IMG/VR virus record: IMGVR_UViG_3300028486_000080
Span: 16,199 to 80,198 of that record
Length of the DNA: 64,000 nucleotides
Reading direction: 5' to 3' (one strand)
Source of the DNA: a virus
Taxonomy: Duplodnaviria; Heunggongvirae; Uroviricota; Caudoviricetes
The position numbers and the translations under genes were made by a program. Below the pieces are notes generated by a model. That model ran no database searches, was not told the origin of the DNA, and worked only from the letters and a program-made list of their open reading frames with translations. Positions 3,729-64,000 of the stretch are shown here, one piece after another. How positions within the stretch are numbered: position 1 is the first letter of the stretch; every line of letters starts with the position of its first letter.

Positions 3729-3995
3729 TCAGGACTGACGATGCTCATGTACCTTAGTCACCTTGAGTCCGTCAAGCCCGAACTTCGCGAGGGACATTTC
3801 CCAATATTTCAGTTCGGCTTCGGTCCAGCGGTAGGTCTTCAGAGCCCACTCACGCGTAATTAGCTTGCCGTGGATAGCAGCGATTACTTCTGCTTTTCTA
3901 CGGGCGGTCCACCGCGAGGTATTCGCTGGGGGTAGGCTATCGACCGTGATCTGACCGGTTGGTCCTAGAGCATACTTCGGGCGATGTGCTGCCAT
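3729..3995 (-). CDS. sciP: SciP / DUF1153 family CtrA-inhibitor homolog
   Basis: YALGPTGQITVDSLPPANTSRWTARRKAEVIAAIHGKLIT...W...GLDGLKVT matches the SciP pattern GP.G....DLPP..T.RW..RRKAEVVAAV.GGL; GGAGG RBS before ATG 3995. Confidence 0.88.
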   Translation of the reverse strand: MAAHRPKYALGPTGQITVDSLPPANTSRWTARRKAEVIAAIHGKLITREWALKTYRWTEAELKYWEMSLAKFGLDGLKVTKVHEHRQS

Positions 3996-16184: not shown

Positions 16185-16236
16185 GTGTGAACCTCAGACA
16201 TTAACCTTAACAACATGGGGGCAATTGAACATCGTG

Positions 16237-23676: not shown

Positions 23677-25155
23677 CTATACGCCGGATTGCTTGATGAT
23701 CAGTTCGATGTCGAGAGACACGAGTTCGAAGAAGTCATTGGGGCGCGGAGAGTTGGAGATCGCACGCGCCGTGAAGCCGTCGTCCTGATTATAGAAGCGA
23801 TCCTTGATCATCTTCATATATTTCTTCGTGATGTAGTCGGACAACATAGTGTCGTAGAACTCGACCGGATTCTCGCGCCACACCAGCTTACCGCGGTCCA
23901 GCTTCATCAGGTGATGCACCGGATAAAGGAGCGGCAGAATATACGCAGGGAGCGCACCCTTGATGGTCTCGTGCATCGGCTCCTGGAAGTAGTAAGTGCG
24001 GAACGGATGATTGGGAAGAGCCTCAGTGTATCCTGTCGCTGAGCGCGCATATTTCCCGCTCTTGCGATACATCTGAGTGAACTCCTTCACGAGCCAATCG
24101 TGGAGGCGCATAATGTCGGGAACGAGCGCCAACGCCGACAAGAACCCCTTATCGGTGGAGGCAGAAAACACGTCGTCTCCCGACGACGGGGAGCATGCCA
24201 CCTTGACGGCGCGGAACGCCTTCTGCACTCCAGCCTTGGAGTTATAGAAGTTGATGCCGGGAGTAACCATTTCCCCGCGATCAAGGCGCGGGATTCCACG
24301 GTTCACGTAGAGTCCATAGAGTGCGACCATAGCGAGCGTGATAACCTCACGCACCTTGATCTCGTCCTTGATCTCCGCTTCATCCGGCTTCCAGTTGATG
24401 CGAGCGTTGATGCTCGGGGGGAGGGCGTTACGCAGATCGTCGTAGACGCCATCATAAGTGTTGATGGCGGTGACAGTCTGCTCCGAACCAGCGTTGCGTG
24501 CGACGATCACGTCAAGAATCTGCCGCTTCGGAGCTTCAGCCGAGTTCTTCGGATAGATGAACTCTACGTTGACTGATCCCTGAAGTTTGGGGAGAAACTT
24601 CTGAATGGCTGCCGCATACTTCTCTTCGAACGCACGCAGACGGCTGGGATGACGGATGCGCTCGACAGACTTGCGGTCGGGGTTCTCCTCGGGGATCACG
24701 CAGGAGAGAACCTGCTTGCGAATAGCAAATGATGTGTGCCCGCCATCGACGATACCATGCAGCGACGGATCGTCCGCCGTCACGGCAATCTTCGTGTTGC
24801 CTGCAAGAAGCGCGGCGCGGGAAACTGACGCAAGGAGCCCCTTGTTGCGGAACACCATCTTCTCAGGATTATTGGACAGCGTGTCGCGAATCTGCTTGAC
24901 GACGGCGTTTTCCTTGGCGCCGCGCGGATTGCCGCCAGTGCCGAGAGGGAAGAGGTAGGGGTAGATGTGCTTTATCGGAACGTCAGCGCAAATTGCTGAG
25001 CCGAGTTCTTTGTCGTCGGTCTTGATCGACGGGCGTGCCTTAAGGTCAAGAGTGAACGTCACCGGATTGTCCGCGTCATAATGGAACACCGTCTCGACGG
25101 TAGGTTCCTCGACGGTTTCGGCTTCTTCTACGCGGTCTTTAAGCTTTACAGCCAT
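23677..25155 (-). CDS. AIPR-family (ParB/DndB-like nuclease fold) protein
   Basis: FRNKGLL, IVDGGHT and ARNAG correspond to the AIPR NNG, IVNGGQT and N motifs; GGAG RBS. Confidence 0.65.
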   Translation of the reverse strand: MAVKLKDRVEEAETVEEPTVETVFHYDADNPVTFTLDLKARPSIKTDDKELGSAICADVPIKHIYPYLFPLGTGGNPRGAKENAVVKQIRDTLSNNPEKMVFRNKGLLASVSRAALLAGNTKIAVTADDPSLHGIVDGGHTSFAIRKQVLSCVIPEENPDRKSVERIRHPSRLRAFEEKYAAAIQKFLPKLQGSVNVEFIYPKNSAEAPKRQILDVIVARNAGSEQTVTAINTYDGVYDDLRNALPPSINARINWKPDEAEIKDEIKVREVITLAMVALYGLYVNRGIPRLDRGEMVTPGINFYNSKAGVQKAFRAVKVACSPSSGDDVFSASTDKGFLSALALVPDIMRLHDWLVKEFTQMYRKSGKYARSATGYTEALPNHPFRTYYFQEPMHETIKGALPAYILPLLYPVHHLMKLDRGKLVWRENPVEFYDTMLSDYITKKYMKMIKDRFYNQDDGFTARAISNSPRPNDFFELVSLDIELIIKQSGV

Positions 25156-25760: not shown

Positions 25761-26807
25761 TTACTTTTCTGCGTTAACGATGTAGGACCGATTGGTCCCT
25801 GCGGATACGCCCCAGATCGAAGATGTCTTGGACGCGGCGTGTTCTTGATCAAGAATATTAACCTTACCAAATCCGTGTTCCATTAGCAAGCCCGCAATTA
25901 CCTGCTCCAGCATTCCTGCCTTCACGTTGCCAACTTCAATGCACACACGACCGCCAGGTACGAGCACGCGCCACTGATCTGCGATGACGCGGCTCATGAA
26001 CTGTGCCCACGTCTCCATACCGTGGTTCTCGTCAAGCTTCTCTGGTTGCTCACGTATGAACCAATTGCGAAGCCAGTTATCGTCGGTGTAAGCCACCTCA
26101 GACACGAACGGCGGAGAAGTAAGAACTAGGTTGACGCTGTTATCCGCCACATGCTTGTTGAAGCATGCATCGGTCACTGTCAGGATTCTCAAAGGAGAAA
26201 ACTCAGGAGGGAGCGGATCACGCAGCAGACGCTTGGTCTTGCTGATCACAACCTCCTTCACGGAACGGTACTCCGGTGTCTGCCCACGCTTCTCATTAAT
26301 CTTAAGCTGACGCTCGACGCTGACAGCTTGATTGGGAGGCAGCGTGTATACAGAGAGAAAGCCTTTGGAGTGCCCAGTAAGGCGTGTGAGTATGCACAGC
26401 CTGATCCATCTATCGACCGGGGTGTGGCGCAATAGGAGCATCGACGCCATGATCTCTTCCAACGTGTCTGGGTGGAAGAACGCCAACATACGTTCCGGCA
26501 GAACGCTGCGCTCAGGAAGTTTTAGTGTGAGATCAGCAAGACGTTTCTCTACTTCCGCCAAAGTTGGCGGAGCCAGCCTTGGCTCCAGCAGATGGATATG
26601 CAGTGGGTTGAGATCGTTTGCGATCACCTTCCGTCCGAGGAGGGCAGCTTCGAGAGGAACAGTCCCTCGACCAGAGAATGGATCGTATACCCACTCTCCC
26701 GGAGCCGAGAACTTCTCAACGAAATAGTTTACGAGAGACGGCTTGAAGCATGCTCGGTAAGGAACCTGATGCAGGCTGTGCCCGTCTCTTTGCTTGTTTG
26801 ACCACAT
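25761..26807 (-). CDS. N4-cytosine/N6-adenine DNA methyltransferase
   Basis: YRACFKP, VYDPFSGRGT, NDLNP, LVLTSPPF. Confidence 0.85.
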   Translation of the reverse strand: MWSNKQRDGHSLHQVPYRACFKPSLVNYFVEKFSAPGEWVYDPFSGRGTVPLEAALLGRKVIANDLNPLHIHLLEPRLAPPTLAEVEKRLADLTLKLPERSVLPERMLAFFHPDTLEEIMASMLLLRHTPVDRWIRLCILTRLTGHSKGFLSVYTLPPNQAVSVERQLKINEKRGQTPEYRSVKEVVISKTKRLLRDPLPPEFSPLRILTVTDACFNKHVADNSVNLVLTSPPFVSEVAYTDDNWLRNWFIREQPEKLDENHGMETWAQFMSRVIADQWRVLVPGGRVCIEVGNVKAGMLEQVIAGLLMEHGFGKVNILDQEHAASKTSSIWGVSAGTNRSYIVNAEK

Positions 26808-26846
26808 GGTGTTAACCTTAACACGCTGTGGGGATTATGGTCAAGG

Positions 26847-26877
26847 CAAAAAAAAAAAGAGACCGCAGTGCGGTCTC
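26847..26877 (-). terminator. intrinsic terminator
   Basis: GAGACCGC-AGT-GCGGTCTC stem plus a 12-nt T run on the minus strand. Confidence 0.75.
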
Positions 26878-26883
26878 CAGAGA

Positions 26884-27255
26884 CTAAAGCTCTATGTCTT
26901 TTCCAGGAGGGCTTGGTGGAGGCAACACATGCTCCTGTTCAGGGAGTTCGTTCATCCCATCAGGGAGCACCGGAGGGATGTTGGGTTCCCGTCCGAACGT
27001 CTTGCGGTAGTCGTCGATCATTTCCTGGTACATGCGATTGATCTCGACGCGCATGTCAGAGAGACGCTGATTGCGCTGCATCTGCCGCGCGTTGAAGCCC
27101 TCCACATCGTCGCTTTCGGCGCCATCCATTGCGGCAATCTTGTAAGCCAACGCATGCTCCGGTCCCATGTGAAGCGCGAGCATAGTGCCGCCGATGAGTG
27201 CGAAGAAGGCAAGATTAGCCACAACACCCTTCCAGTTGTTCTTCAACCACTCCAT
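26884..27255 (-). CDS. membrane-anchored hypothetical protein
   Basis: Start MEWLKNNWKG with GGAG RBS, TM helix; co-transcribed after the ctrA-like gene. Confidence 0.6.
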   Translation of the reverse strand: MEWLKNNWKGVVANLAFFALIGGTMLALHMGPEHALAYKIAAMDGAESDDVEGFNARQMQRNQRLSDMRVEINRMYQEMIDDYRKTFGREPNIPPVLPDGMNELPEQEHVLPPPSPPGKDIEL

Positions 27256-27260
27256 TGGCG

Positions 27261-27650
27261 TCACTCCGTGGCAGTTTTCTGAAGGTTGGGGTTGCGCATC
27301 GTGTAGCCCCGCCCCCAAACTGTTTCGATGTAGTGCTGCCCGCCCGTGGCGGTTGCGAGCTTCTTGCGGAGCTTGCAGATGAACACGTCGATGATCTTGA
27401 GTTCCGGTTCATCGATCCCACCGTAGAGGTGGTTGAGGAACATTTCCTTCGTGATCGTCTCGGCGGGCTTGAGTGCCAGAAGCGCGAGCATATCGAATTC
27501 TTTGCCCGTCAGGTGAACAGGTGCGTCATTGACCAGCACCGTCTTAAGGTCAAGATTGACCTTGATTTCACCAATGGTGATGGTGGTTTGCTCAGCATCC
27601 TCAGGGGGAGCCGTCTCCTCAGGAGCCACTTTTTCCTTAGCTTTTGTCAT
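27261..27650 (-). CDS. ctrA: CtrA-like winged-helix DNA-binding domain lacking the receiver domain
   Basis: VHLTGKE...[32 protein letters not shown]...[10 protein letters not shown] is the CtrA C-terminal signature; only about 30 aa low-complexity N-terminus; GGAG RBS. Confidence 0.93.
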
Positions 27651-27661
27651 CACTATCTCCA

Positions 27662-27712
27662 TTAATATGTGTTAACGCCTCCACGGTTAACCGATTAACC
27701 GGGAGGCGTCAA
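27662..27712 (-). promoter_or_regulatory. promoter of the ctrA-like gene (TTGACG -35) overlapped by a 35-bp inverted repeat carrying TTAA half-sites
   Basis: ACGCCTCC(A)CGGTTAA-CCGA-TTAACCGGGAGGCGT at 27675-27709; four TTAA in 27662-27698. Confidence 0.6.
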
Positions 27713-27745
27713 CTAAATTCTTAACGGAGTTATGTTAACGTTAAC

Positions 27746-28327
27746 TTACCAGAACTGCCACCAATGTTTGTGGACATCAAACTTTGGATTCTCTGCTGGA
27801 TGGTCCTCGTGCTTGGGTTCAGGTAGAGGCGGAGCTTCTTTCTTCGCGATCTCCTCCTCGAACCACCGTGCGTTTTGCAGACAACGTGTGCGTCCAGAAG
27901 GGTGGGCACCATCAGCAGGCGCGTCACCATAATCTTCGCAGATGGGTTTCAGGTGCTCACGCTTCAGCCAACCCTCAGCCACGCCTTTCTTCACCGCGAA
28001 GTGGTCTGCCTCTGACTCATCGTCGTCAATCTCTTTCTGAAGATGCCCGCACTCGTGAGCGAACATGAACAGACGAGCTTGCCAGGGCATTTCCTTGATG
28101 TACTTCGGGTTAAGGAAGATCAGGTCTCTTCCAGCCGCTCCACCAGGGCTAGGGATGTCATAATCGATGATAACCTTAGCGCCGGGGCACCGGATCGTAA
28201 TAAGGTTATCATTGTTCGGTCCTGTGGTGTAGTGGTCTGGATACTTCTTATTCTCATCCACCACAATTTCTGCATGAGCCGCACCTATGAAGCCAAACAG
28301 GCACAGTGCGATAATAAGGCTACGCAT
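27746..28327 (-). CDS. secreted protein with HExxH zincin-like motif
   Basis: Signal peptide; FAHECGHL, ESEADHFA, HPSGRTR. Confidence 0.6.
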   Translation of the reverse strand: MRSLIIALCLFGFIGAAHAEIVVDENKKYPDHYTTGPNNDNLITIRCPGAKVIIDYDIPSPGGAAGRDLIFLNPKYIKEMPWQARLFMFAHECGHLQKEIDDDESEADHFAVKKGVAEGWLKREHLKPICEDYGDAPADGAHPSGRTRCLQNARWFEEEIAKKEAPPLPEPKHEDHPAENPKFDVHKHWWQFW

Positions 28328-28338
28328 CTTCTTCCCCC

Positions 28339-28361
28339 TTAAGGTTAATCGTTAACCTTAA
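28339..28361. promoter_or_regulatory. palindrome TTAAGGTTAA-TCG-TTAACCTTAA
   Basis: Read directly; four TTAA on a 6/7/6 lattice. Confidence 0.6.
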
Positions 28362-35093: not shown

Positions 35094-35126
35094 GTTAACC
35101 TTAACACTGGTAAGGTTAACTGTCAA
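35094..35126 (-). promoter_or_regulatory. sigma70 promoter TTGACA-N17-TAAGGT with inverted repeat GTTAACCTTA-N7-TAAGGTTAAC
   Basis: Read directly. Confidence 0.7.
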
Positions 35127-35929
35127 GCCGTAATCAGATACTCCTTGGTCTTTTTGTTTTGTGTCTTCTTACCGCTGATCGTGTGAGTAGCCGCTAGATT
35201 ATGAAAGGTGAACCCGGCGTAAAGTTCCTCTACTTCGTCGCATACATCGTAGCTGAGTAGAAACGGGATTTTGTTTGCGGAAAGCTCCCGCAAAACATCC
35301 CGTAGGCGTGTATGGTCTTCTAGCGACATTAACTGGTGGGACTTTGTGTACAGGTCTCCTCCCTTCTTAATATACGGAGGATCGAGATAAACGAAATCAC
35401 CCTGTCCAGCGCAGGGTAACACCTCGGAGAAGTCCACGTTGCGTACGACTACCCGGTCTCGATATCGGCGTAAATCGTTGGCTTCCGCTATAAGGCGTGG
35501 AGCATTGTATCGGCAGTCCACGGTCCACTTACCTGTCTGAGCATTGCCGCCTATCTTGCCAGATGACATGATGCCAGAGAAAGTGGTGCGGTTAAAGAAT
35601 ATGGCATAGAATGCCCGATCCACTATACTGACAGGTTTAGTCTCTCGCATGGTGTCAAATTGTTTGGCAGTAGGACGACAGTCCATAAGATCAATAAGGT
35701 TTTCGTAATCCCTATCGCTAGCGCCGAACAATACTTTCCAAAAAGCCGATACAAACGGATCGATGTCATTTATCGATGCACGTTGGACAAGGTTGTTACG
35801 CAGCATATACGTGAATACGCTCCCTCCCCCGACAAAGGGCTCATACAATGTATGAGCCCCTGCCGGTACAAACGGCGTGAAGTGTTTGACTAATTTACTT
35901 TTGCCGCCAGGGTATCTGAAGAGTGACAT
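35123..35929 (-). CDS. dam: Dam-family (D12 class) N6-adenine DNA methyltransferase
   Basis: FRYPGGKSKL, YEPFVGGGSV, INDID, VYLDPPY; target sequence not determinable from sequence. Confidence 0.88.
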   Translation of the reverse strand: MSLFRYPGGKSKLVKHFTPFVPAGAHTLYEPFVGGGSVFTYMLRNNLVQRASINDIDPFVSAFWKVLFGASDRDYENLIDLMDCRPTAKQFDTMRETKPVSIVDRAFYAIFFNRTTFSGIMSSGKIGGNAQTGKWTVDCRYNAPRLIAEANDLRRYRDRVVVRNVDFSEVLPCAGQGDFVYLDPPYIKKGGDLYTKSHQLMSLEDHTRLRDVLRELSANKIPFLLSYDVCDEVEELYAGFTFHNLAATHTISGKKTQNKKTKEYLITA

Positions 35930-50282: not shown

Positions 50283-50534
50283 TTAATTTCGCTACGTGAT
50301 TCTGTTAACCTTAATGTGAACACCTATCAGCGTTAACCTTAATCGTTAACCTTAACGTGAACACCTATCAGCGTTAACCTTAATTCTTAACCTTAATAGT
50401 CAGCTTTGTTAACCTTAATTCTTAACGTTAATGCGCGATTCATGGTAAATCTGGCGTTAACGTTAATTGTTAACCTTAACGGCTGTTAACCTTAACGATT
50501 ATGGTTAACGTAGTATGGTTAACGAGCCGTTAAC
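50283..50534. repeat. dense TTAAC array: 24 TTAA, 8x TTAACCTTAA, one exact 28-bp direct repeat, one canonical CtrA box at 50519-50534
   Basis: Counted in sequence; non-coding. Confidence 0.9.
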
Positions 50535-52766: not shown

Positions 52767-54113
52767 GGATTTTCCCGCCGCCGCGCGTTGTATTCTTGAA
52801 TGCGTGCGAGCCCGAACAGTCGCCGCATTTCATCCACCGGCAGACCACGGCGCCGCGCCCCACCACGCACGGCTGAATCCTCGATAACAGTCTCTAGCCA
52901 ATCGGTCACCGGCTTGAGGCGTTCCGCTTTGTTGCTCATGCGCAGTAAGCTATGGGCATCCCGTAACAGCGAAATATTAGGCACCGGCAGCGCGGGCAAC
53001 GGCTCCAATTGCTTGACGCGTCCGCGTTTAGGTTTCACCGATTCGGACATTACCGCTTACCCTTGTTCCTCGACATTCATAATTCCAGGTCCAGGTTTGT
53101 GCGTGGCGTGCGTCACCATGGCGTAGTCAGCAGGCGAGAACATGACGACGACTTGCGCGCCCTTTATCGCGTTATCCATAACGTAATGCATCGCGGGCAT
53201 CATGTCCTCGAAAGGACCGACGATGCCCTGCATATTCGGCAGCACCACCACATACTGAGTAACCATTACGCCTCCACTTCACCCTCTTGGCGGCGCTTGA
53301 TCACCGCGGGCGCTAGCGGGTCCAGCGGACTATCGCTAGCCTCGATTGCGCGCTCCCGCAGCGTAGCCTCCAGCCCCTCAGGAGTCTTTGCCTTAGGAAA
53401 CGTGCTCGGCAGTCCAGGCACACACGTTATGCCCCATTTCTTTGCGAGGCTCCCACCGATCTTGCGCATGGCTTCAGCCTTGCCACGCAAGTCGGCAGCC
53501 ACGAGCTTGGTGCCCATGCTTGCCATGTCGTCGGCTTGCTCGTCGTAGAGTCCCGCCTTAGTAGCGATAAGCGATACCGTCATGTCCTGCGCCGCGCGCA
53601 TGACTTCACGTTTTGACATTGAGTGCTCCCTTAATCATTCGTTGGCGCAACAGCTTCACCGGCACGCCCGCGTTCCTTGCAGCATCCCTTATAAACTTCT
53701 CGGACGCCATAGCCTCCAGCCAATCAGCAACATAGTTAGCGTCCGCCACTACCATGTCGCCTTCTGGCGATCCGTCAGTTTCATAAGCCCGCAACCATTC
53801 GGCAGCAAAGCGCAGCGCATCAGGGGGCGGTTGCTTAGGTATGCTCATATTCTGCCTCCATACGGTCCAAGTATGCCTTGTCTGCCGCCTCTTCGGCGCG
53901 AAGCTCTTCATCGGTCGGATACCGAGGAACCCAACCGTCCAGCCACGCGCACGGGCGGTTAGCCGACAGAACACGATTCTGCGGCAGCGGCAGCCTCAAC
54001 AGAAGCTCCGTCGCCACAGTGTGATAGTAGTCACTCCAGGCGCCCATACCAGCCTTGCGCGCCTCTTTAGAGGCTTCAAGATAGGCATCTTCGGGGGTGT
54101 ATTCGGTGCACAT
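52763..54113 (-). CDS. operon of five hypothetical genes: 53835-54113, 53606-53848, 53266-53619, 53057-53266, 52763-53050
   Basis: Coupled ORFs behind the cassette promoter at 54160; 52763 and 53606 look paralogous. Confidence 0.6.
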
Positions 54114-54159
54114 AGGTTCGACTCCTATAATGGCGCGCATTGCGCCGAACTCTCAGGAA

Positions 54160-54190
54160 CCCTAGCACCAAAGTCTTAAGAAACCGTTAA
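54160..54190 (-). promoter_or_regulatory. CtrA-box promoter TTAA-CGGTTTC-TTAA-N7-GTGCTAGGG
   Basis: Read directly. Confidence 0.75.
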
Positions 54191-55398
54191 GGTACCAATA
54201 TAATCGGACCAACGATCTTCAGGCACACACAATTGTCGATCCACACCGGGCGCCCTTCGATCAGCAAATCCCACGCACTCTTGTGAAGCGTTAATGTTAA
54301 CTGTTTCTCTAGATCAGCGACGGTCGTATCCCAGGTCTCTTCAACGTCGAAATTGTGCCGTGAGTATCTGTTAACCCTAATAGGGATTGAACCCTCACCT
54401 ACGGTCATTTTTCCAGTTTCCTCAACAGTCGGGCGCGCGGCGGACCACTTCAGTTTCTTTCATCGATCCTCTCTCCACAGAAAGCGCACCGCCCGCGCAC
54501 AACGATGCACACGTGGTCCGTCAATACATATGACCGATAGAGGGTCATCGGTTGTCAAAATCCTTTTGATACACGAGCTTTTTACAGTGCTCACAATAGA
54601 TTGTCACCGTGCCGTAAGCACCGCCACCATGCCCACACGTCGGGCAACCTTCAGAGCTTGACGCCTCGACTTCTATCATCGTTTCGGTCCAGGGCTTTGC
54701 ACAGAAGACACACAGCGGCGGCTTCACCCACCCGTTTGGATTGTCGCTCAATAGTAGTGCCTCCGAGAATCATCCACACGCACGATCTCACCATCAGCGG
54801 TGTAGTCGATGCCACACTTGGCGCCGCTCAGGCTATTGGTCATGTCCTGCGGCGTCAAATAGCGAAATCCCTTGTAGGCTTCGCGGTCCATCAGCGCCGT
54901 CTCGATCAGCGACGCCACGCCCCGGCGCGCGTCCTCATCGCGATCAGCCGAGTGCAGGATGTAGCTATTCGCCCAATTGCGCAGCTTCTCAAGCTCCACA
55001 GTCTTGCGTGCCTTAGCCATGACGTGCCCTCCGTTGCTCAAGATAGCCGACGATCATCTTGTTGCGCTTAGCCAGAGCCTCGCACATGAAACGCTGATAG
55101 GTGCGCGCGTTCCCCAGCCACCACGGGTCCAGCGGTCCCGTTGCAGCCTCGTTCGCTTTGCGTGCCCAGAGCGCTGCCATGCGCTTGGCGTGAAGACTTG
55201 CTTTTGCTCGCGTCATTCGAGCACCATCCAGCCAATCACGGGGGACACGTTCAGGCGCGCAACAAGCGCCTCGTATTCATCCGCCGTGATATGGTTGCCA
55301 AGCTCACGAGACTTGTTCATGGCTCCCTCAAGCGCAACGCGAATCATGTTGGTCTCGACAAGGCTGAAATTCTGGTAAGGCGCGCGATAGATTTGCAT
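54187..55398 (-). CDS. operon of small hypothetical genes: 55213-55398, 55013-55216, 54748-55020, 54545-54751 (CxxC Zn-binding), 54187-54408
   Basis: Coupled ORFs; the first has the GGAGTCGAAC leader. Confidence 0.55.
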
Positions 55399-55432
55399 GT
55401 TCGACTCCTTTGTGTTCTCTCGACTTCAAGCA

Positions 55433-55463
55433 CCCTAGCACGAATGTACTAACGAACCGTTAA
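55433..55463 (-). promoter_or_regulatory. CtrA-box promoter TTAA-CGGTTCG-TTAG-N7-GTGCTAGGG
   Basis: Read directly. Confidence 0.75.
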
Positions 55464-55827
55464 GGGCGCCCTTGTGTCACTAGCCCGGCATCCTCCAATT
55501 CGCTCAGCATGTCAGAGACACGCACCAGCTTCGTGCGATCCGTGATCTCTCCGTTCGCGACGGCATCACGATACCACGTGATAACCTTAGCCTCGCTAAC
55601 CCAGCGGCGCTCAGGGTAGACGATGAAAAATTGACGATCTCCGCTCATGGCAGATACAGCGTCGGATAGCTGGTAGAGGCGTTGAAGCCCATAACCTGCG
55701 TGGTCTCGATATTCACATCGGCAACGTTCTCGACAGTCCGCACAACCGCACGGATGGCTTCCTTTGGCGTGCCCACGTTGAAGACGATCATCACCGCGAC
55801 TTGATTAGGCTTGAAATCAGCTTCCAT
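55460..55827 (-). CDS. two small hypothetical genes: 55645-55827 and 55460-55648
   Basis: GGAGTCGAG leader; ATGA coupling. Confidence 0.55.
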
Positions 55828-55874
55828 TGCTCGACTCCTATAATGGTGCGCATGCACCGAACTCAAAGATCACC

Positions 55875-55947
55875 AGACACCAATGGGATTCGAACCCATG
55901 TTTGCTCCGCGAAGGGTGCCGTCCTGTTCCCGTTAGACGATAGTGGC
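55875..55947 (-). tRNA. degenerate tRNA-Glu-like element (6-nt anticodon loop, no CCA)
   Basis: GCCACTA-TC-GTCTAACGGGAACAGGAC-G-GCACC-CTTCGC-GGAGC-AAAC-ATGGG-TTCGAAT-CCCAT-TGGTGTC-T; D and T arms follow bacterial tRNA-Glu; one mismatch in each of the acceptor and anticodon stems. Confidence 0.65.
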
Positions 55948-56006
55948 TGGCATCACCGCACGGTACCTTGCGGCGTCCCGAGCCGATCAAGCTCAGGCAC
56001 GAACAA

Positions 56007-56036
56007 CCTAGCACTGAGATATTAAAAAAGCGTTAC
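56007..56036 (-). promoter_or_regulatory. CtrA-box promoter GTAA-CGCTTTT-TTAA-N7-GTGCTAGG upstream of the tRNA-like element
   Basis: Read directly. Confidence 0.65.
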
Positions 56037-56154
56037 CACCCGACAAATATAAGGGATACTATGTTATCACTTGCGCGCGTTAAGGTTAAAGATTCGTATT
56101 CCGCGAATGTCCCATATTAAGGTAAACGAATCCTGTAGCCGAAAAACGAAATAG

Positions 56155-59139
56155 CTAGGCGGCTTGATCCTTATTGTCTTCATTCCGACGCACCAGATAC
56201 ACCTCAGGTATGTAATCGCCGCCGTCATGTTCCCAGCGCCGCCAAATGATCTCAGACACACGCCAGCGCCCGGTGCGGGGCACCTTGACTTTTCCGCGGT
56301 CGAAGTCCCGCGTGTTGAAATATTCAACATCGGTCGGAACAATCCACAAGATATCCTCACGGCGCGGCAGCGCGGGGAAGTCACGCACCAGCGAAAACCC
56401 ATCTACCATCAGTAGACAGCGCAACTTACTCATCACCCTTCCTCATGATGATATACCAGCCACCGCGCGACAGCGAATAATCTATGTCCCTATGACACCA
56501 CCACCCTTCATCCTTCATCTTGTTGCGCTCGATTGCAAGCGCACGGATGCAATGCTGCGACCAATCCCCATCGAACGGCACGCACGGAATGACGATCACC
56601 TCTTGGTGCGCATACGCTCGGATACCGTCCAGCCAGCGATTGATGCGTGCCCACATGATCAGGAGTCCCTATATCTGCTCGGCAGCGGCACATCGCGAAA
56701 GGCAAAGAAACCAAGCCAGAGTCCACCCAACACAATTGCACCAATCGAGGCGAAGAACCCGACGACACCCGTCAAGATCACCAGCGCCGTATTCGAATAC
56801 GTTTGGGGCAATTGGGTATTCCAGTATAGGGCAATACCCCCAACCACAAACAGGTACACCGTCAAGTAGCCGTGCACCCGGCGTCTTGCCGTGCGCTCAA
56901 GCTCCGCACTCTCGTATGGAGTCAGGTCCGATCTCATTCCAGGTAAAGCTCCGCTAGATCAGCCGTGCCCGACACAAAGACTATGCCCGACGCATTCTGC
57001 ACCTCGACAACGCGGCACAGTTGCGTCACTAGATGATCACCTCCGTTGTCAGGATGATGCGCGTTGACCACCATGACGATAGCGTCGGGCGGATACTTGG
57101 ATAGAGCCTCAATCAGTTGCTTGACGTTCATTCCGCATCCTTGTCAGGTATTGGGCATATGCGCCAAGCAATTGTTGCGTGGCTTCATCCTCGTTTGTCG
57201 CGATCTCACCGAGGCGATACGCCATAGCTGCCAGCGCCGTGTTGCTCAGCAGATAAGTCATTGCCACCGAGCGCATCATTTGATTGATGGCTTCGCTCAG
57301 CAGCGCTTCATCACTACCATTTGTAGCAGTGCGGATTTGGTCCATGTCCAGCATTATGCGTCATCCATTGGTATGAAGTTGACCTTAGGCTTCGAGCGTC
57401 CAGGTAGCTTGTTGATCAGCGGCACATTCCAAATCTCAGCGATGCGCGTAGCCTCACGTAACGCCCAATCATATTCGGTCGTACGATACACCCATCCTGC
57501 GACGCCTTGCTCATTGATCCGGCATGCGAAGTAGGCGAACCCATCTTGGGGTTGCCAGGACTCCGTAACGATCACACGGGGACCATGATCCGGCAGCGGC
57601 GCGGTCTCAGCAGTAAGGCGTTCGGCGCGAGTCATTGCTTGCCACCGAATATCCGTGGCACTCACAAAGCTCTTGTGCGTCTCATGCTCCAGCCACGCGA
57701 CGATAGCCTCATGCCAACGCTTGTTAGGCTCCGAATACATTGGGCGGCACACGTCAGAGCCGTGCACGCGCTCGCAGATGAAAGGCGTGCCGTCGATAGA
57801 CGCACAGAGCTTTTTGCCCGGCGCGATCTCCAGCAACCACATAGGGAACGCTTGATTGTATTCGTCACCGTAGTTGATGCGCATCAGTCGTATAGTCTCC
57901 ACAGTAACGCATCGCGCCTTAACGGCAGCATTTCAACATGCTCGGGGCACCGTGGTCCCAGCGCGCTACATTCGAGCATGGCTCCCATGACTGAAATAGT
58001 CACCAGCGCATACGCCAGGAGCGCTACCGTTAACCCTACTGCGAGCATGCGCTTCAGGATCATTCCGGCACACTCCGATACGCCTTGACGCACGTCGTGT
58101 AAATCGTAGGCTTTGACATTTCCGCTTGCTGGTCAATTGCTTTTGCCGCAGAAAGGCACTCTTCGCCACTCGGATAATCGATCACCAGAGGTGCCGTCCA
58201 CGCCTTGGCGAACATAATTAATGCCCAGACGATTTTTGTGCCAGCGATAATCATGCATCCTCCCTAACAGACGGCGACGGATTCTTGTAGAGTTGAATCT
58301 TGATACGGTTAATGGCTTGCCGGGCGTCCTCTCGCATGCCGCGCGCGATCATTTCCTGCACATCGCTCAGCATCGATGCCACAGTATTGGTTACCGTGCC
58401 GTTGAAATCCAACAGCCGGGAAAACTCTCGATCACACTCCGCTTCCGAGCATCCAAGGCACTCACGCGCCCGCGCTTCATCCTTAAAGAAATTTTTATCC
58501 AAGCTCCGTTGCCTCCATAATTGCGGCATCAGACAATTCCATCGCTTGATACTTGTCGATCACAGCGAGCCGCGCGGTGCGCTCATTATACATTTCAGCG
58601 CGCGGGCGCCCCACCAGACCTAACAGCACAAGGCACGCGAAGTAGGACAGCCGGTGAATAGCTGCATAGGTGCGCGGGTCATAGGTCATGGGTAGCCCTC
58701 GGCGCATCAGGATCATCGCCCCAGACAAGTGCAGGATCGATGCCAGTCTCAGCGAGCACGCGCTTGATATCGTCGCGCAATGCCTTGGCGAGGCGGACGT
58801 TGCCGCACTTGCGAGCGAGTTTGTAGTCGCAAACCCATGCACGTAGTCCGACAATATGTCCCTTGAGGGTTACACCGCTCATGGCTTGCGCTCGACAACC
58901 AAGTGCAGCTTAGCGCGCGACGGCGAAAGGCGACCGTGCGCGCCGTGAATTACGCGCAAAGAGTCGCGACCAGCCCACGACGCCCGGCGCTTGGCAGCAG
59001 CCTCCGCAATGATAGCTGCAACCTCAGCCAGAAAAGCCTCACGGCGCTCCGGTATCTGCGACCAGTGCGTTGGCGGCTCAGCGAGCTTGTTGCTGCACAC
59101 AATGCGCGCGGTAGCTACAGGGGGGAAAATGTCCAGCAT
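56155..59139 (-). CDS. operon of about 12 small hypothetical genes: 58879-59139, 58679-58882, 58495-58689, 58251-58529, 58060-58254, 57884-58093, 57354-57902, 57109-57354, 56934-57131, 56659-56937, 56426-56656, 56155-56436
   Basis: Tightly coupled ORFs, several with TM helices; no function recognised. Confidence 0.55.
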
Positions 59140-59172
59140 GTTTCGACTCCATGTTTCCTCGACTTTGGACAG

Positions 59173-59202
59173 CCTACCACAGAGGTACTAACAACCCGTT
59201 AA
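59173..59202 (-). promoter_or_regulatory. CtrA-box promoter TTAA-CGGGTTG-TTAG-N7-GTGGTAGG
   Basis: Read directly. Confidence 0.65.
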
Positions 59203-60363
59203 CGCGCCCTCAGCCTTGCGAGCATTAACCTTACTTATATACCGCAACCGGGAAATGGCGTCCCGAATGTCAGCGCGGATAAACGACTTCTCACGGTCGG
59301 ATAAATCCCACCGATTGCGATCAGCCATGCCGTCGCGAATAGTCATGCGCAGCAATAGCACTTGCCGATCAACCGTCACGGCGAGCCCCCGGCGTCTTGC
59401 CATTATGCAACACCTCGTCATGCGTCTTGATGTGGCGAAGCTTTTCCACTAGCCGCTCAGCAGCGCCAATAGTCAGTGCGTCGGCGTTGCCAGCTTCCAG
59501 GTCCGCCATGATAATGCGCACCTCACGCGTGGCGTATTCGTAAAGATTTGCTTCGCGTTTATCCGACAGAAGCGCAGCGTCGAATTTCATTCAACAACCT
59601 CCATCGTTATCCGCACCCGGCGCCCTATGTAAGGTCGCACATCCTGATGTAGATGAAAGTCCACATCCCACGACTGCACCCGAAAGAATAACTGACTATC
59701 GGGCACCTCAAGCTCACCAACCATAGCCATGCCACCGTCTTCAGTGTCCATAGCCAGAACGCCTTCAGCCACCACCTTAGGCATCGGGGAACTTCTCTTT
59801 GATCCACGCGACCACGTGCTTGGCGGTCTCAGCGTCAAGCGTCACCATCGTGCGCTTGGAGTGCACCGCTTTATCACCGCGCGATATCTCTTCAACATCA
59901 AACATCAGATACGGGTTGCCGGTATGCGTAGCGAGGCGCAAGATAGCCGAGCCCGTGCCGTAACGCTTCCATGACGGTTTGTGCTCGCGGGTCACATACT
60001 CGATCTCTGAGTAGTGCTCACCCTCCGTATTCCCGTCATCCCGGATGAAGTGGCAGCCGTGATCTTTGAAAATTTCCCTTTTCATGATCATACCAACTGT
60101 TGAAGAGCGTGCGCCGCGCAAGCGCCGCGGATGTAAGACTGCAACGCCGCGTCGCTATCGAACACGAGGGGCATTTCCAGGTCATGCCCCGTCACATGAT
60201 AGAAGGCGCCCGATGAATCGACTTTGACGTGCACGTGGCGATAAGCACCAGTGCCCATGTTCTCGTATGCCTCGACCAGGGAACCGGTAGGCATGCCGCC
60301 ATAGGTAAGGCGCGGAAATTCCGACTTTGCGTCGTCGAAAGGCTCTGAAGGCTCGCGGTACAT
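59188..60363 (-). CDS. operon of five small hypothetical genes: 60088-60363, 59777-60091, 59587-59784, 59369-59590, 59188-59421
   Basis: Coupled ORFs; GGAGTCGAAATG leader at 60363. Confidence 0.55.
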
Positions 60364-60576
60364 TTCGACTCCTTGATGTGGTGGAACGAGTGAGTCTTGA
60401 CCTCACACTGACGGCACGGTCGGGCGCGGTATGATCCTCCCCTTAGGTGCCGTTGCTCTGCCAATATTAAGCTACCGTCCCTTAACCATTGAAATCTATT
60501 GTGACGGGCGCTCTTATTCAGCGGTCGGGAAGCTCCGTCCCTTAGGCCGTTTGGGTCTCGCCCGTCACTTCACACA

Positions 60577-60607
60577 ACCTAGCACACAGAAGTTAACAAA
60601 CCGTTAA
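60577..60607 (-). promoter_or_regulatory. CtrA-box promoter TTAA-CGGTTTG-TTAA-N7-GTGCTAGG
   Basis: Read directly. Confidence 0.75.
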
Positions 60608-60612
60608 CGCGC

Positions 60613-60828
60613 TCAGATTTTGCACATTCTTTGAAGGCGCTCGATAACTGCGGGAGTCCTATACCGGCGCGACGTGCGACGGCGCGATCCCTCGAACCAC
60701 AATTGAAGCGTGCCGTCCCGCATACGGAACAAATTGAACTGAGAATTAGTGCTCGTGACAAAGACAGCCGCAGCGCGATAACCGTCTCCAGGCTTGCCCT
60801 TAGTCGTCAGCACATGCGTCAGTTGCAT
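60613..60828 (-). CDS. small hypothetical protein
   Basis: GGAG RBS before MQLTHVL. Confidence 0.5.
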   Translation of the reverse strand: MQLTHVLTTKGKPGDGYRAAAVFVTSTNSQFNLFRMRDGTLQLWFEGSRRRTSRRYRTPAVIERLQRMCKI

Positions 60829-60830
60829 CG

Positions 60831-61442
60831 CTACACAGTCTCCACTTTCTTGAGCCCGTTGGGTCCGAAGTCCGTGCGCAGCCCGGCGCGCACTTCCTTT
60901 GCCATGCGCACCCATCCGAGCGCACCGAGCAACGTCTGCGAGCGTCCGCCGTGCATGCCGTCATGCCACGACTGCCAACCGGCAACCGAATACTGGCGGT
61001 CAGGCTCGTGATAGATCACGTGAGTCAGCCCATCCGTGCCGATCAAATCCATCGGCATGTAGTCATCAGCACCAGGGGGGCGGAAGTATGACGTGACGCG
61101 CAATCCGAGCGAGTCCACCACCTCACTGATGTAGGCGGGAGTCGGGTCAACCTTGGTGCCAGCGGGGACACACATGTAGTAATCCAGCGAGTCCACAAAC
61201 TCACTGCCGAAAATGAATCGCAACGCCTCTCGCGTCGCGGGGATGCGCTCAGACTGGTGCGGACTGTAACCGCCAATCAGCGAGTCAACCACCGTGCTCG
61301 CTTCGATATACTTGATGCGTCCAGCGACGTTGATGCAGGCGCCGCGATTGTAGGTGCCGCGCACCTGAATGCGACCGATCTCCTGCCCCGCGCGATTGAC
61401 GATGATATGCGTCGGCTTTTTGATCAGATAAGGATTGGGCAT
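60831..61442 (-). CDS. hypothetical protein
   Basis: AGGAGTCGAACATG leader. Confidence 0.65.
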   Translation of the reverse strand: MPNPYLIKKPTHIIVNRAGQEIGRIQVRGTYNRGACINVAGRIKYIEASTVVDSLIGGYSPHQSERIPATREALRFIFGSEFVDSLDYYMCVPAGTKVDPTPAYISEVVDSLGLRVTSYFRPPGADDYMPMDLIGTDGLTHVIYHEPDRQYSVAGWQSWHDGMHGGRSQTLLGALGWVRMAKEVRAGLRTDFGPNGLKKVETV

Positions 61443-61472
61443 GTTCGACTCCTTTTGTTCTCGACTACGCAC

Positions 61473-61504
61473 ACCCTAGCACGCATGTCTTAACAAACAG
61501 TTAC
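61473..61504 (-). promoter_or_regulatory. CtrA-box promoter GTAA-CTGTTTG-TTAA-N7-GTGCTAGGG
   Basis: Read directly; back-to-back with the plus-strand TTGACA-N17-TAGTGT promoter at 61515-61543. Confidence 0.7.
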
Positions 61505-61579
61505 TACAGGGGACTTGACAACGGTAAGATTAACAAGTAGTGTCCGAGGCTCACCCCTATTAACGTTAAGGAAACCCTC

Positions 61580-61819
61580 ATGGCTACCAAAAAGAAAGCA
61601 CCAACTCGCAAAAGCCCGGCAAAGCGTGCCACGTTCAAGCCGCTCGCTATCCAGGTCAACACCACTACACAGATCGAAGCGGCAGAGGGCGCCGACTTCC
61701 GCGCGGCGGCAGGCGCCGTGCTTACCGATCTCCAGCGGCGCCTCAGCAAGGGCGAACTCACGGGTCTTGAGGTAAAGGCTTATGGGATGAACGGTAACCG
61801 CATCCTTGCGGAGCTTTAA
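61580..61819 (+). CDS. small protein with basic N-terminal tail (MATKKKAPTRKSPAKR)
   Basis: Own sigma70 promoter; AAGGA RBS; bidirectional hairpin at 61861-61892. Confidence 0.65.
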   Translation: MATKKKAPTRKSPAKRATFKPLAIQVNTTTQIEAAEGADFRAAAGAVLTDLQRRLSKGELTGLEVKAYGMNGNRILAEL

Positions 61820-61939
61820 CCCTAACGCGTAATTAACCCTAGAGTGGTTAACAAAAAGTAAAAGGGCGCCTCATATCGAGGCGCCCCTTTCTTGATGTCG
61901 AATCTTATATCAGATCGACGTTTTGATGCCGATTCTATA

Positions 61940-62923
61940 TCAAGCCGCCTGAAGCAGCTTGACCGCCTTAGCCTTCATCACGGCGCCCGATCCAAATTGA
62001 GCGGATGCGAGGCGGGCATCGTCCGCCGTCTCACCATCAGCGGTGCGGCGTGCCGTGCGGTCATGATCGACGTAGCGCGTCACGGCGTTAAGCGCCGTCC
62101 AAGCGTTGTAGGTCTCAGTGCCGCGCTCAGTGAGAGTCGTATCGAGTGAGCCGGTGATACGATCCACTACAGCCTTGCCACGTCCGGTGACTTCCTTACC
62201 CTCTTGCCCGATGTCAACAACCTTTTTCAGGAAGTTGATAGTTTCGTCGCGCGTCATCTTGATATTGCGCAGCGACTCCGCAAACTCGCGGTAGCCGTCG
62301 AAGTCCGCCGCGATCTTTGCCATAGCGGCAAGCGCCTTGTCCTGCGCCACCAGATCGAAAGCGGCGTTGTGCTTGATCGATACCACGCCCTGCTCAAAGG
62401 CGGCGCCCTGAAGCGTGTTGCGGCACTCGACGCGCGTTCCTACAGCACCGCCGCGCGTTGCCAGCGTGCCGTCGAATGACGTAGCGAGTAGGGCATAAAG
62501 CTTGTGCTTCGAACCGGCGATATCGGACTCTTCACCGCCGTTGAACGCGGCTAGCGCCCAGATCACGCGACCACCCTTGATGGCGCCCATCGTTTCCATG
62601 ACGAAACGCGGGTCCGACAGGATGAAGTTGTGGAAGAACTCGCGAATCTGCGCGGGCTGTACCGGGATATAGTCGTCAGTGAAGAGCCCTAGGCGAGCGT
62701 TGTTGTCGTCGCGCACGATGGCGACAGAGTTGTGAAGTTGGATCATGTTGTTGCCGCGCTGAATAAACAGCGGGCACTTGGAAACGGTGAAATCGGTCTT
62801 CGACGCCTTAGCCCACTCATCCAGCGAGGAGTCGGCGGTCACACTCGTATTTTCGCGGCGATGCCACGAGGGGGCGGCAGTGTCGCGGCGTGCCATCGAG
62901 TCAGCTACGTTATCCCAAGCCAT
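61940..62923 (-). CDS. DUF932 family phage/plasmid-like protein (TIGR03299-like)
   Basis: SWHRR..DFTV..LGLFTDDYIPVQ..ETMGAIKGGRVIWALA..LLATSFDGT..RVECRNTL..IKH..AWTALNAVTRYVDH. Confidence 0.8.
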   Translation of the reverse strand: MAWDNVADSMARRDTAAPSWHRRENTSVTADSSLDEWAKASKTDFTVSKCPLFIQRGNNMIQLHNSVAIVRDDNNARLGLFTDDYIPVQPAQIREFFHNFILSDPRFVMETMGAIKGGRVIWALAAFNGGEESDIAGSKHKLYALLATSFDGTLATRGGAVGTRVECRNTLQGAAFEQGVVSIKHNAAFDLVAQDKALAAMAKIAADFDGYREFAESLRNIKMTRDETINFLKKVVDIGQEGKEVTGRGKAVVDRITGSLDTTLTERGTETYNAWTALNAVTRYVDHDRTARRTADGETADDARLASAQFGSGAVMKAKAVKLLQAA

Positions 62924-62961
62924 TTGTCTGCATGCTCCTATGTTGCTCTTGAATGATTGAA

Positions 62962-62992
62962 CCTTACAGCGAATGTCTTAACAAACCGTTAA
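62962..62992 (-). promoter_or_regulatory. CtrA-box promoter TTAA-CGGTTTG-TTAA-N9-TGTAAGGT
   Basis: Read directly; a further canonical TTAA-N7-TTAAC at 63050-63065. Confidence 0.7.
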
Positions 62993-63166
62993 AAAGGAAG
63001 CTTGTCCATCCCCATTTGTTATCTTTGGGCATGGATTGTAGGCTCATGGTTAATTTTCGGTTAACGCGGGTTAGATACAATTAAGGTTAAGAAGCTCTAA
63101 CTGCTTCCCCGCATTTATCCCCGCAAAATGAAGGCATAATTAAGGTAAACGGTAGCCGCCGCAAGA

Positions 63167-63194
63167 AAAAGCAGGGGAGTCGAAGCCCTGCTTT
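63167..63194 (-). terminator. intrinsic terminator
   Basis: AAAGCAGGG-CTTCGACTC-CCCTGCTTT plus T tract. Confidence 0.6.
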
Positions 63195-63223
63195 CTCTGC
63201 GCGCTGCCTGATATACAGGCGCG

Positions 63224-63493
63224 CTAGTTGGCGAGCGTAACGGAAGCTGAAGTAAACCAATCGCTATCCGGCGCCTCAGGATCACCAGACGGTCCAGGCA
63301 CCCATAACTGGTCATCCTCTCCCCCGTCTCCCTGAAGCACCAGCGAGGTATGAAGCTCGTTGAGCCAGTTGGCGACCACCGTCAGCTTAGTGCCAACCGG
63401 CACGTCACCATGTGCGCCGTTGCTTATCGGTTGAGTGACGATCACCGTGTCACCCTCTTTAAGCGTCTCGGCAAGGTCCATCCAAGTTGACAT
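63224..63493 (-). CDS. hypothetical protein
   Basis: GGAGTCGAAC leader. Confidence 0.6.
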   Translation of the reverse strand: MSTWMDLAETLKEGDTVIVTQPISNGAHGDVPVGTKLTVVANWLNELHTSLVLQGDGGEDDQLWVPGPSGDPEAPDSDWFTSASVTLAN

Positions 63494-63523
63494 TCGTTCG
63501 ACTCCGTTGTTTCCAGTTTCAAC

Positions 63524-63555
63524 ACCCTAGCACAAAGGTACTAACAAACTGTTAA
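63524..63555 (-). promoter_or_regulatory. CtrA-box promoter TTAA-CAGTTTG-TTAG-N7-GTGCTAGGG
   Basis: Read directly. Confidence 0.7.
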
Positions 63556-63723
63556 TTTGGATCGTGTCGGCTGATAAACCATAGCCCGACCACCACAGCC
63601 AGAATAATGGGTCCGAATGCCACGAAAAACAGAGACACCACCCAATTCTCAATCGGGTTTTTCTGCCCAGCACACATGATCAGCCCTACTAGGCTATATA
63701 GGATAGTGAATTCCAACATCCCC

Positions 63724-63933
63724 CTAAGCCCTCATCATCCGGCGAATGTCGCACCTCAACCGCTCGATACTGCGGCAGTCACTAGGGGTGCCCCCGGTTA
63801 TGTAGCGTATGCGCCTCCCGTTGTGCTCGAATATGATGCGCACATGCCCGCCCTTGGTCATGTCCAGTGAAGCATCCTTGACGCCTATCGCCTCAAGTGC
63901 CGACTGTAACTGCCGTTTCCTTTTCTTCTGCAT
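63724..63933 (-). CDS. HicA-like small protein
   Basis: TKGGHVRI...GGTPSDCRSIERLRCDIRR pattern. Confidence 0.5.
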   Translation of the reverse strand: MQKKRKRQLQSALEAIGVKDASLDMTKGGHVRIIFEHNGRRIRYITGGTPSDCRSIERLRCDIRRMMRA

Positions 63934-64000
63934 ACTTACGCCGCTTCAACTTTGCGGTGCAAACCTTCATGGGGGTATGCAGCATCAAGCTCGCAATCTA

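Follow-up and report, generated by a model that had tools for sequence, protein, structure and literature searches.

A receiver-less CtrA homolog and CtrA-type intergenic sites in the genome of an uncultured phage

RESULTS AND DISCUSSION

A CtrA-type DNA-binding domain without a receiver

The window analyzed here is a 64,000-nucleotide (nt) stretch (positions 16,199 to 80,198) of the IMG/VR record IMGVR_UViG_3300028486_000080, a complete 165,361-bp virus genome with direct terminal repeats that belongs to an uncultured phage of the Caudoviricetes and whose DNA was recovered in sludge metagenome runs. At 27261..27650, its minus strand carries a gene for a homolog of the alphaproteobacterial cell cycle regulator CtrA, in which the winged-helix DNA-binding domain is complete and the receiver domain is missing. 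This is the single Trans_reg_C gene in the whole phage genome, and a megablast search of the region against isolate phages gave no match. The parts of the gene, in window coordinates, are the following.

27261..27650, minus: receiver-less CtrA homolog, coding sequence of 129 amino acids (aa) plus stop (open reading frame, PF00486, NCBIfam CtrA model, gene call P0001)
27657..27660, minus: ribosome-binding site GGAG, 6 nt before the ATG, kept in a related phage as TTAATGGAGA
27588..27650, minus: N-terminal tail, residues 1 to 21, Lys-rich at the start and then acidic and Pro-rich; predicted to be disordered
27288..27587, minus: complete winged-helix DNA-binding domain, residues 22 to 121 (AlphaFold2 model, Foldseek, invariant columns)
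27261..27287, minus: C-terminal tail ...NLQKTATE plus stop, ending in Glu

The enclosing open reading frame (ORF) spans 27261..27662 on the minus strand. We took the ATG at 27650 as the start because it has a GGAG six nt upstream and agrees with the 129-residue gene call P0001 of the protein database; the first ATG of the ORF overlaps the sole Shine-Dalgarno-like word.

The Pfam domain Trans_reg_C (PF00486) matched residues 47 to 121 with an E value of 5e-20 (71.7 bits against a cutoff of 26.2). The NCBIfam CtrA equivalog model NF045991 gave 163.8 bits (E value of 5e-48) through model positions 124 to 224 of 224 only, while the runner-up among the NCBIfam families, RpaB, reached 67 bits. Since about 100 bits separate the CtrA model from the next family, the domain is of the CtrA type in particular and not just a member of the OmpR family. 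The curated NF045991 cutoff of 350 bits was not reached, as expected for half a protein, and the two-domain architecture of CtrA (a receiver with a phospho-acceptor Asp followed by the winged helix) is absent, while the CtrA-type DNA-binding block (the surroundings of T168/T170, the recognition helix and the wing ETVWGRGY) is there. Along the same lines, a full-length CtrA (P0045) aligned to the phage genome through residues 123 to 229 only. The initial annotation, made from the sequence alone, had described the winged-helix segment as almost the CtrA consensus, and the strings that it quoted are indeed present.

A six-frame search of the entire 165,361-bp genome with the receiver profile PF00072 gave no match, even at an E value of ≤10, and the same search was positive in all 14 control genomes. 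A frameshifted receiver just upstream, foreseen in the initial annotation as the finding that would overturn it, can be ruled out, as the gene is preceded only by an 83-nt spacer and a different gene and no PF00072 signal appears there. The receiver was said to be replaced by some 30 low-complexity residues; its absence stands, and the tail is shorter, of 21 to 22 residues. The activity of cellular CtrA is normally set by phosphorylation and timed proteolysis. Because the receiver is gone together with its acceptor Asp, CckA-ChpT phosphorylation cannot control the phage protein, as had been proposed.

A structure prediction, suggested in the initial annotation as a check, was carried out with AlphaFold2 on a 36-sequence alignment and returned a complete effector-domain fold. 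The winged helix was confident over residues 23 to 118 (predicted local distance difference test [pLDDT] of 82 to 92), with four N-terminal strands, helices a1 (49 to 60), a2 (68 to 76) and a long a3 (81 to 102), and a hairpin (108 to 118), whereas residues 1 to 19 had a pLDDT of <50 and are probably disordered. Foldseek matched the model to many isolated effector domains with a template modeling (TM) score of ~0.85 and a probability of 1.00, including that of PhoB bound to pho-box DNA (1gxp), which has the same fold (root mean square deviation of 2.0 over ~100 residues) at 25% sequence identity. A sequence search of the Protein Data Bank found no CtrA domain structure, the best matches being ArlR, OmpR and PrrA. 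Removal of the receiver from PhoB frees DNA binding and activation, a precedent for a constitutively active domain. Such isolated OmpR/PhoB effector domains are, however, laboratory truncations, while the phage protein is the product of a natural gene.

The tail of 21 to 22 residues stands where the cellular protein has receiver helix alpha5 plus the linker, which together count 27 residues, and its first three residues (M1-T2-K3) align onto the M-T-K of the cellular DDYMTKPF motif. From this alignment, a plausible history is that an internal ctrA Met codon, itself conserved, became the start of the gene and that degeneration of the alpha5 segment followed. We also considered as intermediates the 134-aa “short CtrAs” that start at the DDYMTKPF Met (for example, P0024), and these were discarded because the gene lies at a contig edge beside chpT.

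Comparison with cellular CtrA proteins

As a reference we used 80 cellular ctrA loci from many alphaproteobacterial families. Residues 65 to 98 of the phage protein, which comprise the T-x-T triad, helix a2, the activation loop and the recognition helix, coincide with columns invariant in the 80 cellular proteins except for L66I and M79I, and wing residues 108 to 116 are also identical to columns invariant in 80/80. It is through the activation loop that OmpR-family activators contact RNA polymerase. Retained as well are T168 and T170, which were tied to promoter choice by Delaby et al. (PMC6847485 / bioRxiv 739516).

Changes at sites otherwise invariant in cells (94 to 100%) are shared by the window protein and its phage ortholog (see below). 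Those running from Y52F to L66I (Y52F, Q53D/E, S59A, R61K, K62P/Q, T64E and L66I) all map to helix a1 and the a1-a2 loop, and further ones are S22T, T26I/F and V117T. The a1/loop cluster would mark a surface that matters in every cellular CtrA and not in the phage protein, and so points to a CtrA contact relevant to the cellular protein only. Its partner may be the receiver, a second domain, SciP or a proteolysis adaptor.

Over the domain, mean identity is 88% among cellular CtrAs and 71 to 78% between phage and cellular proteins. Identity to the CtrA of Hyphomicrobiales, Caulobacterales, Rhodobacterales and others lies at 67 to 78% throughout, and because it is equal for all orders, the host is not identifiable from this gene. 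A host among the Hyphomonadaceae, an impression given by the names of the matches, was dropped for the same reason. In a quick tree, of low resolution given its few columns, the pair formed by the window protein and that of contig L003 (support of 98) joined the cellular CtrA cluster.

The C-terminal end of the protein differs from that of its cellular relatives. Among the 80 cellular CtrAs, 75 end in Ala, 47 of those in Ala-Ala, while both phage copies end in Glu (...KTATE in the window and ...LAAAE in the ortholog), so that the missing Ala-Ala noted in the initial annotation holds for both. The terminal Ala-Ala is required for ClpXP degradation of Caulobacter CtrA, acidic substitutions stabilize the protein, and the receiver portion also contributes to its regulated degradation. 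The C-terminal Glu and the loss of the receiver suggest that the phage protein probably escapes cell cycle-dependent ClpXP degradation.

Orthologs, selection and assembly

A 130-residue ortholog (P0002), 79 to 81% identical, was found in several samples, on ten contigs of which the longest measures 167.7 kb. The gene order in L003 to L006 is conserved, with a 119-aa protein, a 204-aa HExxH-like protein, the CtrA domain and a 97-aa small membrane protein. In the comparison with L003, the synonymous distance (dS) was ~1.0 to 1.2, and the ratio of nonsynonymous to synonymous distances (dN/dS) was 0.14 overall and 0.11 in the domain, in keeping with purifying selection. The tail was far less constrained, with a proportion of nonsynonymous differences (pN) of 0.32 against the ortholog. 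The dN/dS value and the conserved synteny support the view that this is not a decaying fragment. They indicate that it is a functional, selected phage gene, and its closeness to cellular CtrA points to capture from a cellular ctrA.

The alternative would be a nonfunctional passenger, that is, a freshly acquired 3' fragment of a host ctrA or an assembly chimera. Two observations on contigs speak in its favor: those of the source run are interrupted precisely at positions 27381-27396 of the conserved core, and other “viral” contigs stop partway through the 3' half of ctrA. Nevertheless, a dS of ~1 with a dN/dS of 0.14 against the ortholog, the same neighbors in several independent samples, a ribosome-binding site of its own, a conserved promoter region and a terminator, phage genes on both flanks, and a complete record with terminal repeats make this explanation very improbable. 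The synteny conserved in independent assemblies argues against a chimera in particular.

Some of these assembly patterns deserve a comment of their own. Logan contigs of the probable source run stop and restart at 27381-27396 in the ultraconserved core, as is usual for a de Bruijn assembler where it meets words common to many cellular ctrA genes; for such phages, the CtrA-like gene may be a frequent breakpoint of assemblies. Six IMG/VR contigs of ~10 to 40 kb (L016, L017, L018, L019, L020 and L023) carry only the last 50 to 60 codons of ctrA, 94 to 96% identical to cellular CtrA, and in four of them (L016, L017, L019 and L023) this piece lies near the contig end. Such 3' pieces may correspond to prophages that integrate into the 3' end of ctrA and rebuild it, or to provirus borders inside ctrA.

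CtrA-type sites across the phage genome

The intergenic statistics given here rest on a self-trained dicodon gene model, by which 87% of the genome is coding and 13% intergenic. The total number of TTAA words is what the composition predicts (499 versus 500 expected). TTAA-Nx-TTAA pairs, for which ~1.5 are expected per spacing, numbered 60 for N2, 27 for N9, 23 for N15 and 12 for N7. The intergenic share was 260/499 for TTAA, 277/415 for TTAAC (P of ~1e-141) and 51/56 for TTAA(C/G)(C/G)TTAA (P of ~1e-39), and 11 of the 12 exact N7 boxes were intergenic. Both TTAA-N7-TTAA boxes and TTAACCAT half-sites are strongly enriched in intergenic phage DNA.

Many of these sites belong to promoter-like elements, of which two classes could be distinguished. 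The class A promoters are nearly identical to each other, with a canonical CtrA box at -35 and an extended -10, each ~40 nt before a start codon.

54113..64000, continuing to ~70.9 kb (window numbering), minus: class A promoters, at least 11, TTAACGGTTTGTTAA-N8-TGCTAGGGTG
54167, 55440, 56013, 60584, 61481 and 63532, and beyond the window 64573, 65573, 66243, 68113 and 70913, minus: class A positions

They head a leftward block of ~60 small genes. Class B promoters (TTGACA, 16 to 17 nt, TTAAGGTTAA) head the operons of another leftward block, from 37.9 kb to 0 kb, that contains the DNA polymerase, helicases, RtcB, methyltransferases and the CtrA-like gene. We looked for a phage sigma factor as reader of the promoter classes; no sigma-70-family match passed the cutoff, although a very divergent one is conceivable.

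Between the rightward block (38 to 50.2 kb) and the leftward block (50.6 to 73.4 kb), where the two converge, positions 50305-50500 are densely packed with TTAACCTTAA and TTAACGTTAA words and contain 28-nt repeats. This array may serve as an origin, as a protein sink or as a terminator zone.

SciP homologs and other regulators

The genome also encodes two homologs of SciP (DUF1153), one of which lies in the window.

3729..3995, minus: SciP (DUF1153) homolog, one of two (PF06627, 89 bits)

The second copy, P0122 (120 bits to DUF1153), is located at 86763-87065 of the genome and is preceded by a class A promoter. These proteins are possible partners of the CtrA domain. A complex prediction with domain residues 20 to 126 and P0122 gave a score of 0.00, which was counted neither for nor against binding. 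A GcrA homolog was searched for in the phage and was not found. Another receiver-less CtrA, P0023 (150 aa, 67% identical, with a low-complexity N terminus), occurs in contigs from soil metagenomes (L128:2290-3107), with a DUF1153 (SciP) gene 66 nt upstream of it and a RecD2-like helicase beside it. The pair of SciP and receiver-less CtrA thus recurs outside the present phage.

Transcription unit and upstream region

The CtrA-like gene is followed by a second gene and a terminator, and the region before it is conserved in related phages.

26884..27255, minus: downstream gene of 123 aa with one predicted N-terminal membrane helix; its ATG lies 4 nt past the CtrA stop
26848..26878, minus: intrinsic terminator closing the two-gene unit, a 9-bp stem with 6 GC pairs and then T10
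27746..28327, minus: upstream neighbor, secreted-looking protein of 193 aa, HExxH-like motif HECGH (weak PHROG 87 metalloprotease match)
27685..27712, minus: candidate own promoter, TTGACG (27707-27712), 16 nt, TTAACC (27685-27690), conserved in L003, L004 and L006
27671..27713, minus: 43-nt inverted repeat/hairpin across the candidate promoter, RNA fold of -44.6 kcal/mol, z of -8.2
27720..27745, minus: further conserved TTAAC-type words, GTTAAG and TTAACGTTAAC, from the related-phage comparison

The GGAG of the downstream gene sits within the 3' end of the CtrA gene, and the two are translationally coupled. The 123-aa product has no family match in Pfam or PHROG profile searches and is 32% identical to the gene at the same position in L003. 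The GGAG, the 4-nt gap and the stem followed by T10 bear out the ribosome-binding site, cotranscribed gene and terminator reported in the initial annotation. The promoter that it also claimed is only a candidate: the element is conserved in the related phage, but a generic sigma-70 scan did not report it. Its layout is that of the TTGACA-N16/17-TTAAGGTTAA promoters of the same gene block.

The 43-nt repeat holds two inner TTAACC half-sites (TTAA-N4-TTAA) and an outer GTTGAC/GTTAAC pair, and its stem is preserved in L003 by compensatory changes. It may act as an operator, end or attenuate transcription of the upstream gene, or do both. A second element of the same design is found at 28339-28361, in the gap separating the 119-aa gene from the HExxH-like gene; the loop of its inverted repeat (CTTCTTCCCCC...GGGGGAAGAAG) contains TTAAGGTTAA and TTAACCTTAA, which point toward one another across 3 nt. 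In the predicted fold of a transcript reading through from the upstream gene (27645-27750, minus strand), ACUCCGUUAA (27720-27730) pairs with UUAAUGGAG, which contains the ribosome-binding site. A transcript from the gene's own promoter would not have this upstream arm, and therefore translation may depend on the promoter used.

Possible roles of the phage protein

The reading that we favor, to which we give roughly even chances, is that the protein is a phosphorylation-independent CtrA-type factor working chiefly on the phage's own sites. It would recognize the CtrA half-site TTAAC without needing CckA-ChpT, would be expressed in the replication-gene block from a sigma-70 promoter of the host type and would then switch on the class A promoters, whose -35 is a TTAA-N7-TTAA box. 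It would also bind TTAAC(C/G)TTAA words over the -10 of sigma-70-type promoters, its own included, and damp them, which would provide autoregulation and an early-to-middle switch. The outcome would be a CtrA-type phage transcription program independent of the phosphorylated CtrA that the host holds at the time. Because the activation loop and recognition helix are unchanged and the genome has at least 11 CtrA-box promoters, a role as activator on phage promoters seems at least as likely as pure competition.

A more elaborate form, which we hold to be possible but doubtful, is a self-contained CtrA circuit. In it, the protein would act as an activator in the manner of MotA, while a monomer would read the composite TTAAC(C/G)TTAA sites, with the helix in the major groove and the wing in the adjacent AT-rich minor groove, shut early promoters and autoregulate, and the two SciPs would tune the system. 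T4 MotA is a phage activator of middle promoters at which its box replaces the -35 and a sigma-70-type -10 is kept; T4 also needs AsiA. The analogy would be functional only, since the fold of MotA is unrelated to that of the window protein. If this circuit were true, an alphaproteobacterial cell cycle switch freed from phosphorylation would have been transplanted to serve as a viral temporal program.

Several points weigh against a phage-directed activator. In the AlphaFold2 model, the protein has no obvious dimerization module beyond the domain, and the affinity of CtrA for full boxes is raised by phosphorylation-driven dimerization. The a1/loop substitutions indicate the loss or alteration of some interaction of CtrA. 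The TAAGGT within TTAAGGTTAA resembles the class A -10 hexamer TAGGGT, and part of the conservation of TTAAGGTTAA may reflect promoter function rather than a protein site. The ~60 early-looking small genes behind box promoters would fit phosphorylated host CtrA (CtrA~P) as first activator. More generally, the link between protein and motif is one of co-occurrence, and host CtrA~P could serve all the sites, as it does in other alphaproteobacterial phages (PMC9437464). Finally, when RNA evidence was sought, a run labeled as wastewater RNA-Seq and another run matched the core, 27340-27460, only. These reads were rejected as phage expression, since their third-position differences point to cellular ctrA genes of other organisms.

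The model of the initial annotation, in which the protein is a dominant-negative competitor that occupies host and phage CtrA sites or forms unproductive complexes, appears rather unlikely to us. By shutting the host CtrA regulon (pili, flagella, division genes and origin control), maybe with the SciPs, such a competitor would favor takeover or superinfection exclusion. It would be well served by a protein with no phosphorylation control, probably no proteolysis control and no dimerization module beyond the domain, and a changed a1 and a1-a2 loop surface could mean a lost activating contact. SciP is a known inhibitor of CtrA-activated transcription, the phage has two homologs of it, and a SciP gene stands directly upstream of the receiver-less CtrA P0023 in unrelated contigs. 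Yet neither the activation loop nor the recognition helix differs from that of cellular CtrA, and competition leaves unexplained at least 11 phage promoters with a CtrA box in activator position. What the initial annotation observed is therefore confirmed, while its interpretation is supported in part. Less probable still is that host CtrA~P activates the box promoters at infection, as a readout of the cell cycle that follows the logic of “lytic deferment,” and that the phage domain comes in later, as an antagonist or timer, displacing CtrA~P from phage sites, including the array at 50.3 to 50.5 kb, and thus ending the early phase or releasing replication. In its favor, the box promoters drive blocks of small early-looking genes, the phage CtrA gene belongs to the replication block and has a promoter of another type, phage promoters controlled by host CtrA are on record (PMC9437464), and the phage Jorvik needs ctrA (PMC10589892). 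Against it, a pure antagonist would hardly be expected to keep the activation surface unchanged. The phage-directed factor, the competitor and the timer are not mutually exclusive.

Relation to known phage CtrA-like genes

Although the initial annotation treated the gene as unusual, receiver-less phage CtrA ORFs had already been published. Hynes et al. (2016) (PMC5026251) described a roseophage RDJLphi1 ORF similar to “a portion of CtrA,” and Fogg (2019) (PMC6363796) stated explicitly that the receiver is missing from the phage CtrA-related ORF. Our literature search found no functional study of a phage receiver-less CtrA. With tblastn, relatives were detected in 75 phage records, mostly Rhodobacter and Roseobacter phages. 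Of 37 loci found in IMG/VR, about ten encode a full-length CtrA and about twenty only the domain, frequently preceded by a coiled coil.

The RDJLphi1 gene product gp37 (“transcriptional regulator CtrA,” 151 aa; PHROG 31800, matched by the window protein with an E value of 6.5e-22) resembles the window protein in being phage encoded and in having an OmpR-type domain without a receiver. However, it and its relatives from RDJL and Rhodobacter capsulatus phages are just ~45 to 50% identical to the window protein. In gp37, the domain is N-terminal with a C-terminal extension, and many relatives of this type have an N-terminal coiled coil, while the window protein has only a short disordered N-terminal tail. 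Homologs of gafA and rcc01866 flank the RDJL gene (Fogg 2019, PMC6363796), whereas Pfam and PHROG searches matched no genes of these types among the window neighbors, GafA and Rcc01866 themselves not having been compared directly. In the quick, low-resolution tree mentioned above, RDJL-type sequences fell outside the cellular CtrA cluster on very long branches, which suggests a separate capture.

Thus, the gene is of a known kind and is set apart by its closeness to true CtrA (~74% identity versus ~45 to 50% for the RDJL type), which makes it the most CtrA-like phage version found in this analysis. Distinctive as well are its probable separate capture, its short disordered tail, and the uniform family of CtrA-box promoters and the SciP genes in the same genome. 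With cellular CtrA (NF045991), it shares the DNA-reading helix, the activation loop, the wing and T168/T170; the cellular protein has the Asp51 receiver with phospho-dependent dimerization and an Ala or Ala-Ala end, and the window protein has neither. Around eight receiver-less CtrA-like genes (in L024 [RDJL Phi 2], L025, L026, L028, L030, L031, L034 and L036), the surrounding 6 kb contain 0 to 2 TTAA words versus 5 to 12 predicted. This strong avoidance of TTAA, the opposite of the intergenic enrichment in the present phage, might concern CtrA sites; restriction or the avoidance of such words in GC-rich DNA is also conceivable.

Mascolo et al. (2022) (PMC9437464) described phage promoters controlled by host CtrA in connection with “lytic deferment” and cited the presence of GcrA in phiCbK-like phages. 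The present phage, another alphaproteobacterial one, has in common with these phages clustered intergenic CtrA-type sites and borrowed cell cycle regulators, but they rely on the host CtrA, while it brings a receiver-less CtrA and two SciP copies. The gene may bear on how phages uncouple from, or exploit, their hosts' cell cycle. As a natural, selected CtrA without phosphorylation control and probably without proteolysis control, it offers a test of what the DNA-binding domain alone can do (bind, activate or compete). The candidate targets in the same genome (at least 11 box promoters, ~56 composite words, the array and the two SciPs) provide a better experimental entry than the RDJL-type genes.

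Other genes of the window

An N6/N4 DNA methyltransferase gene (25761-26812) has its ATG 4 nt after a promoter-like TTGACC-N17-TTAAGGTTAA site, which suggests that its mRNA is leaderless or nearly so. A second methyltransferase, of the Dam (D12) class, is located at 35123-35929. The phage itself also encodes an AIPR (abortive-infection phage resistance) domain, in a 492-aa protein at positions 23677-25155 of the minus strand.

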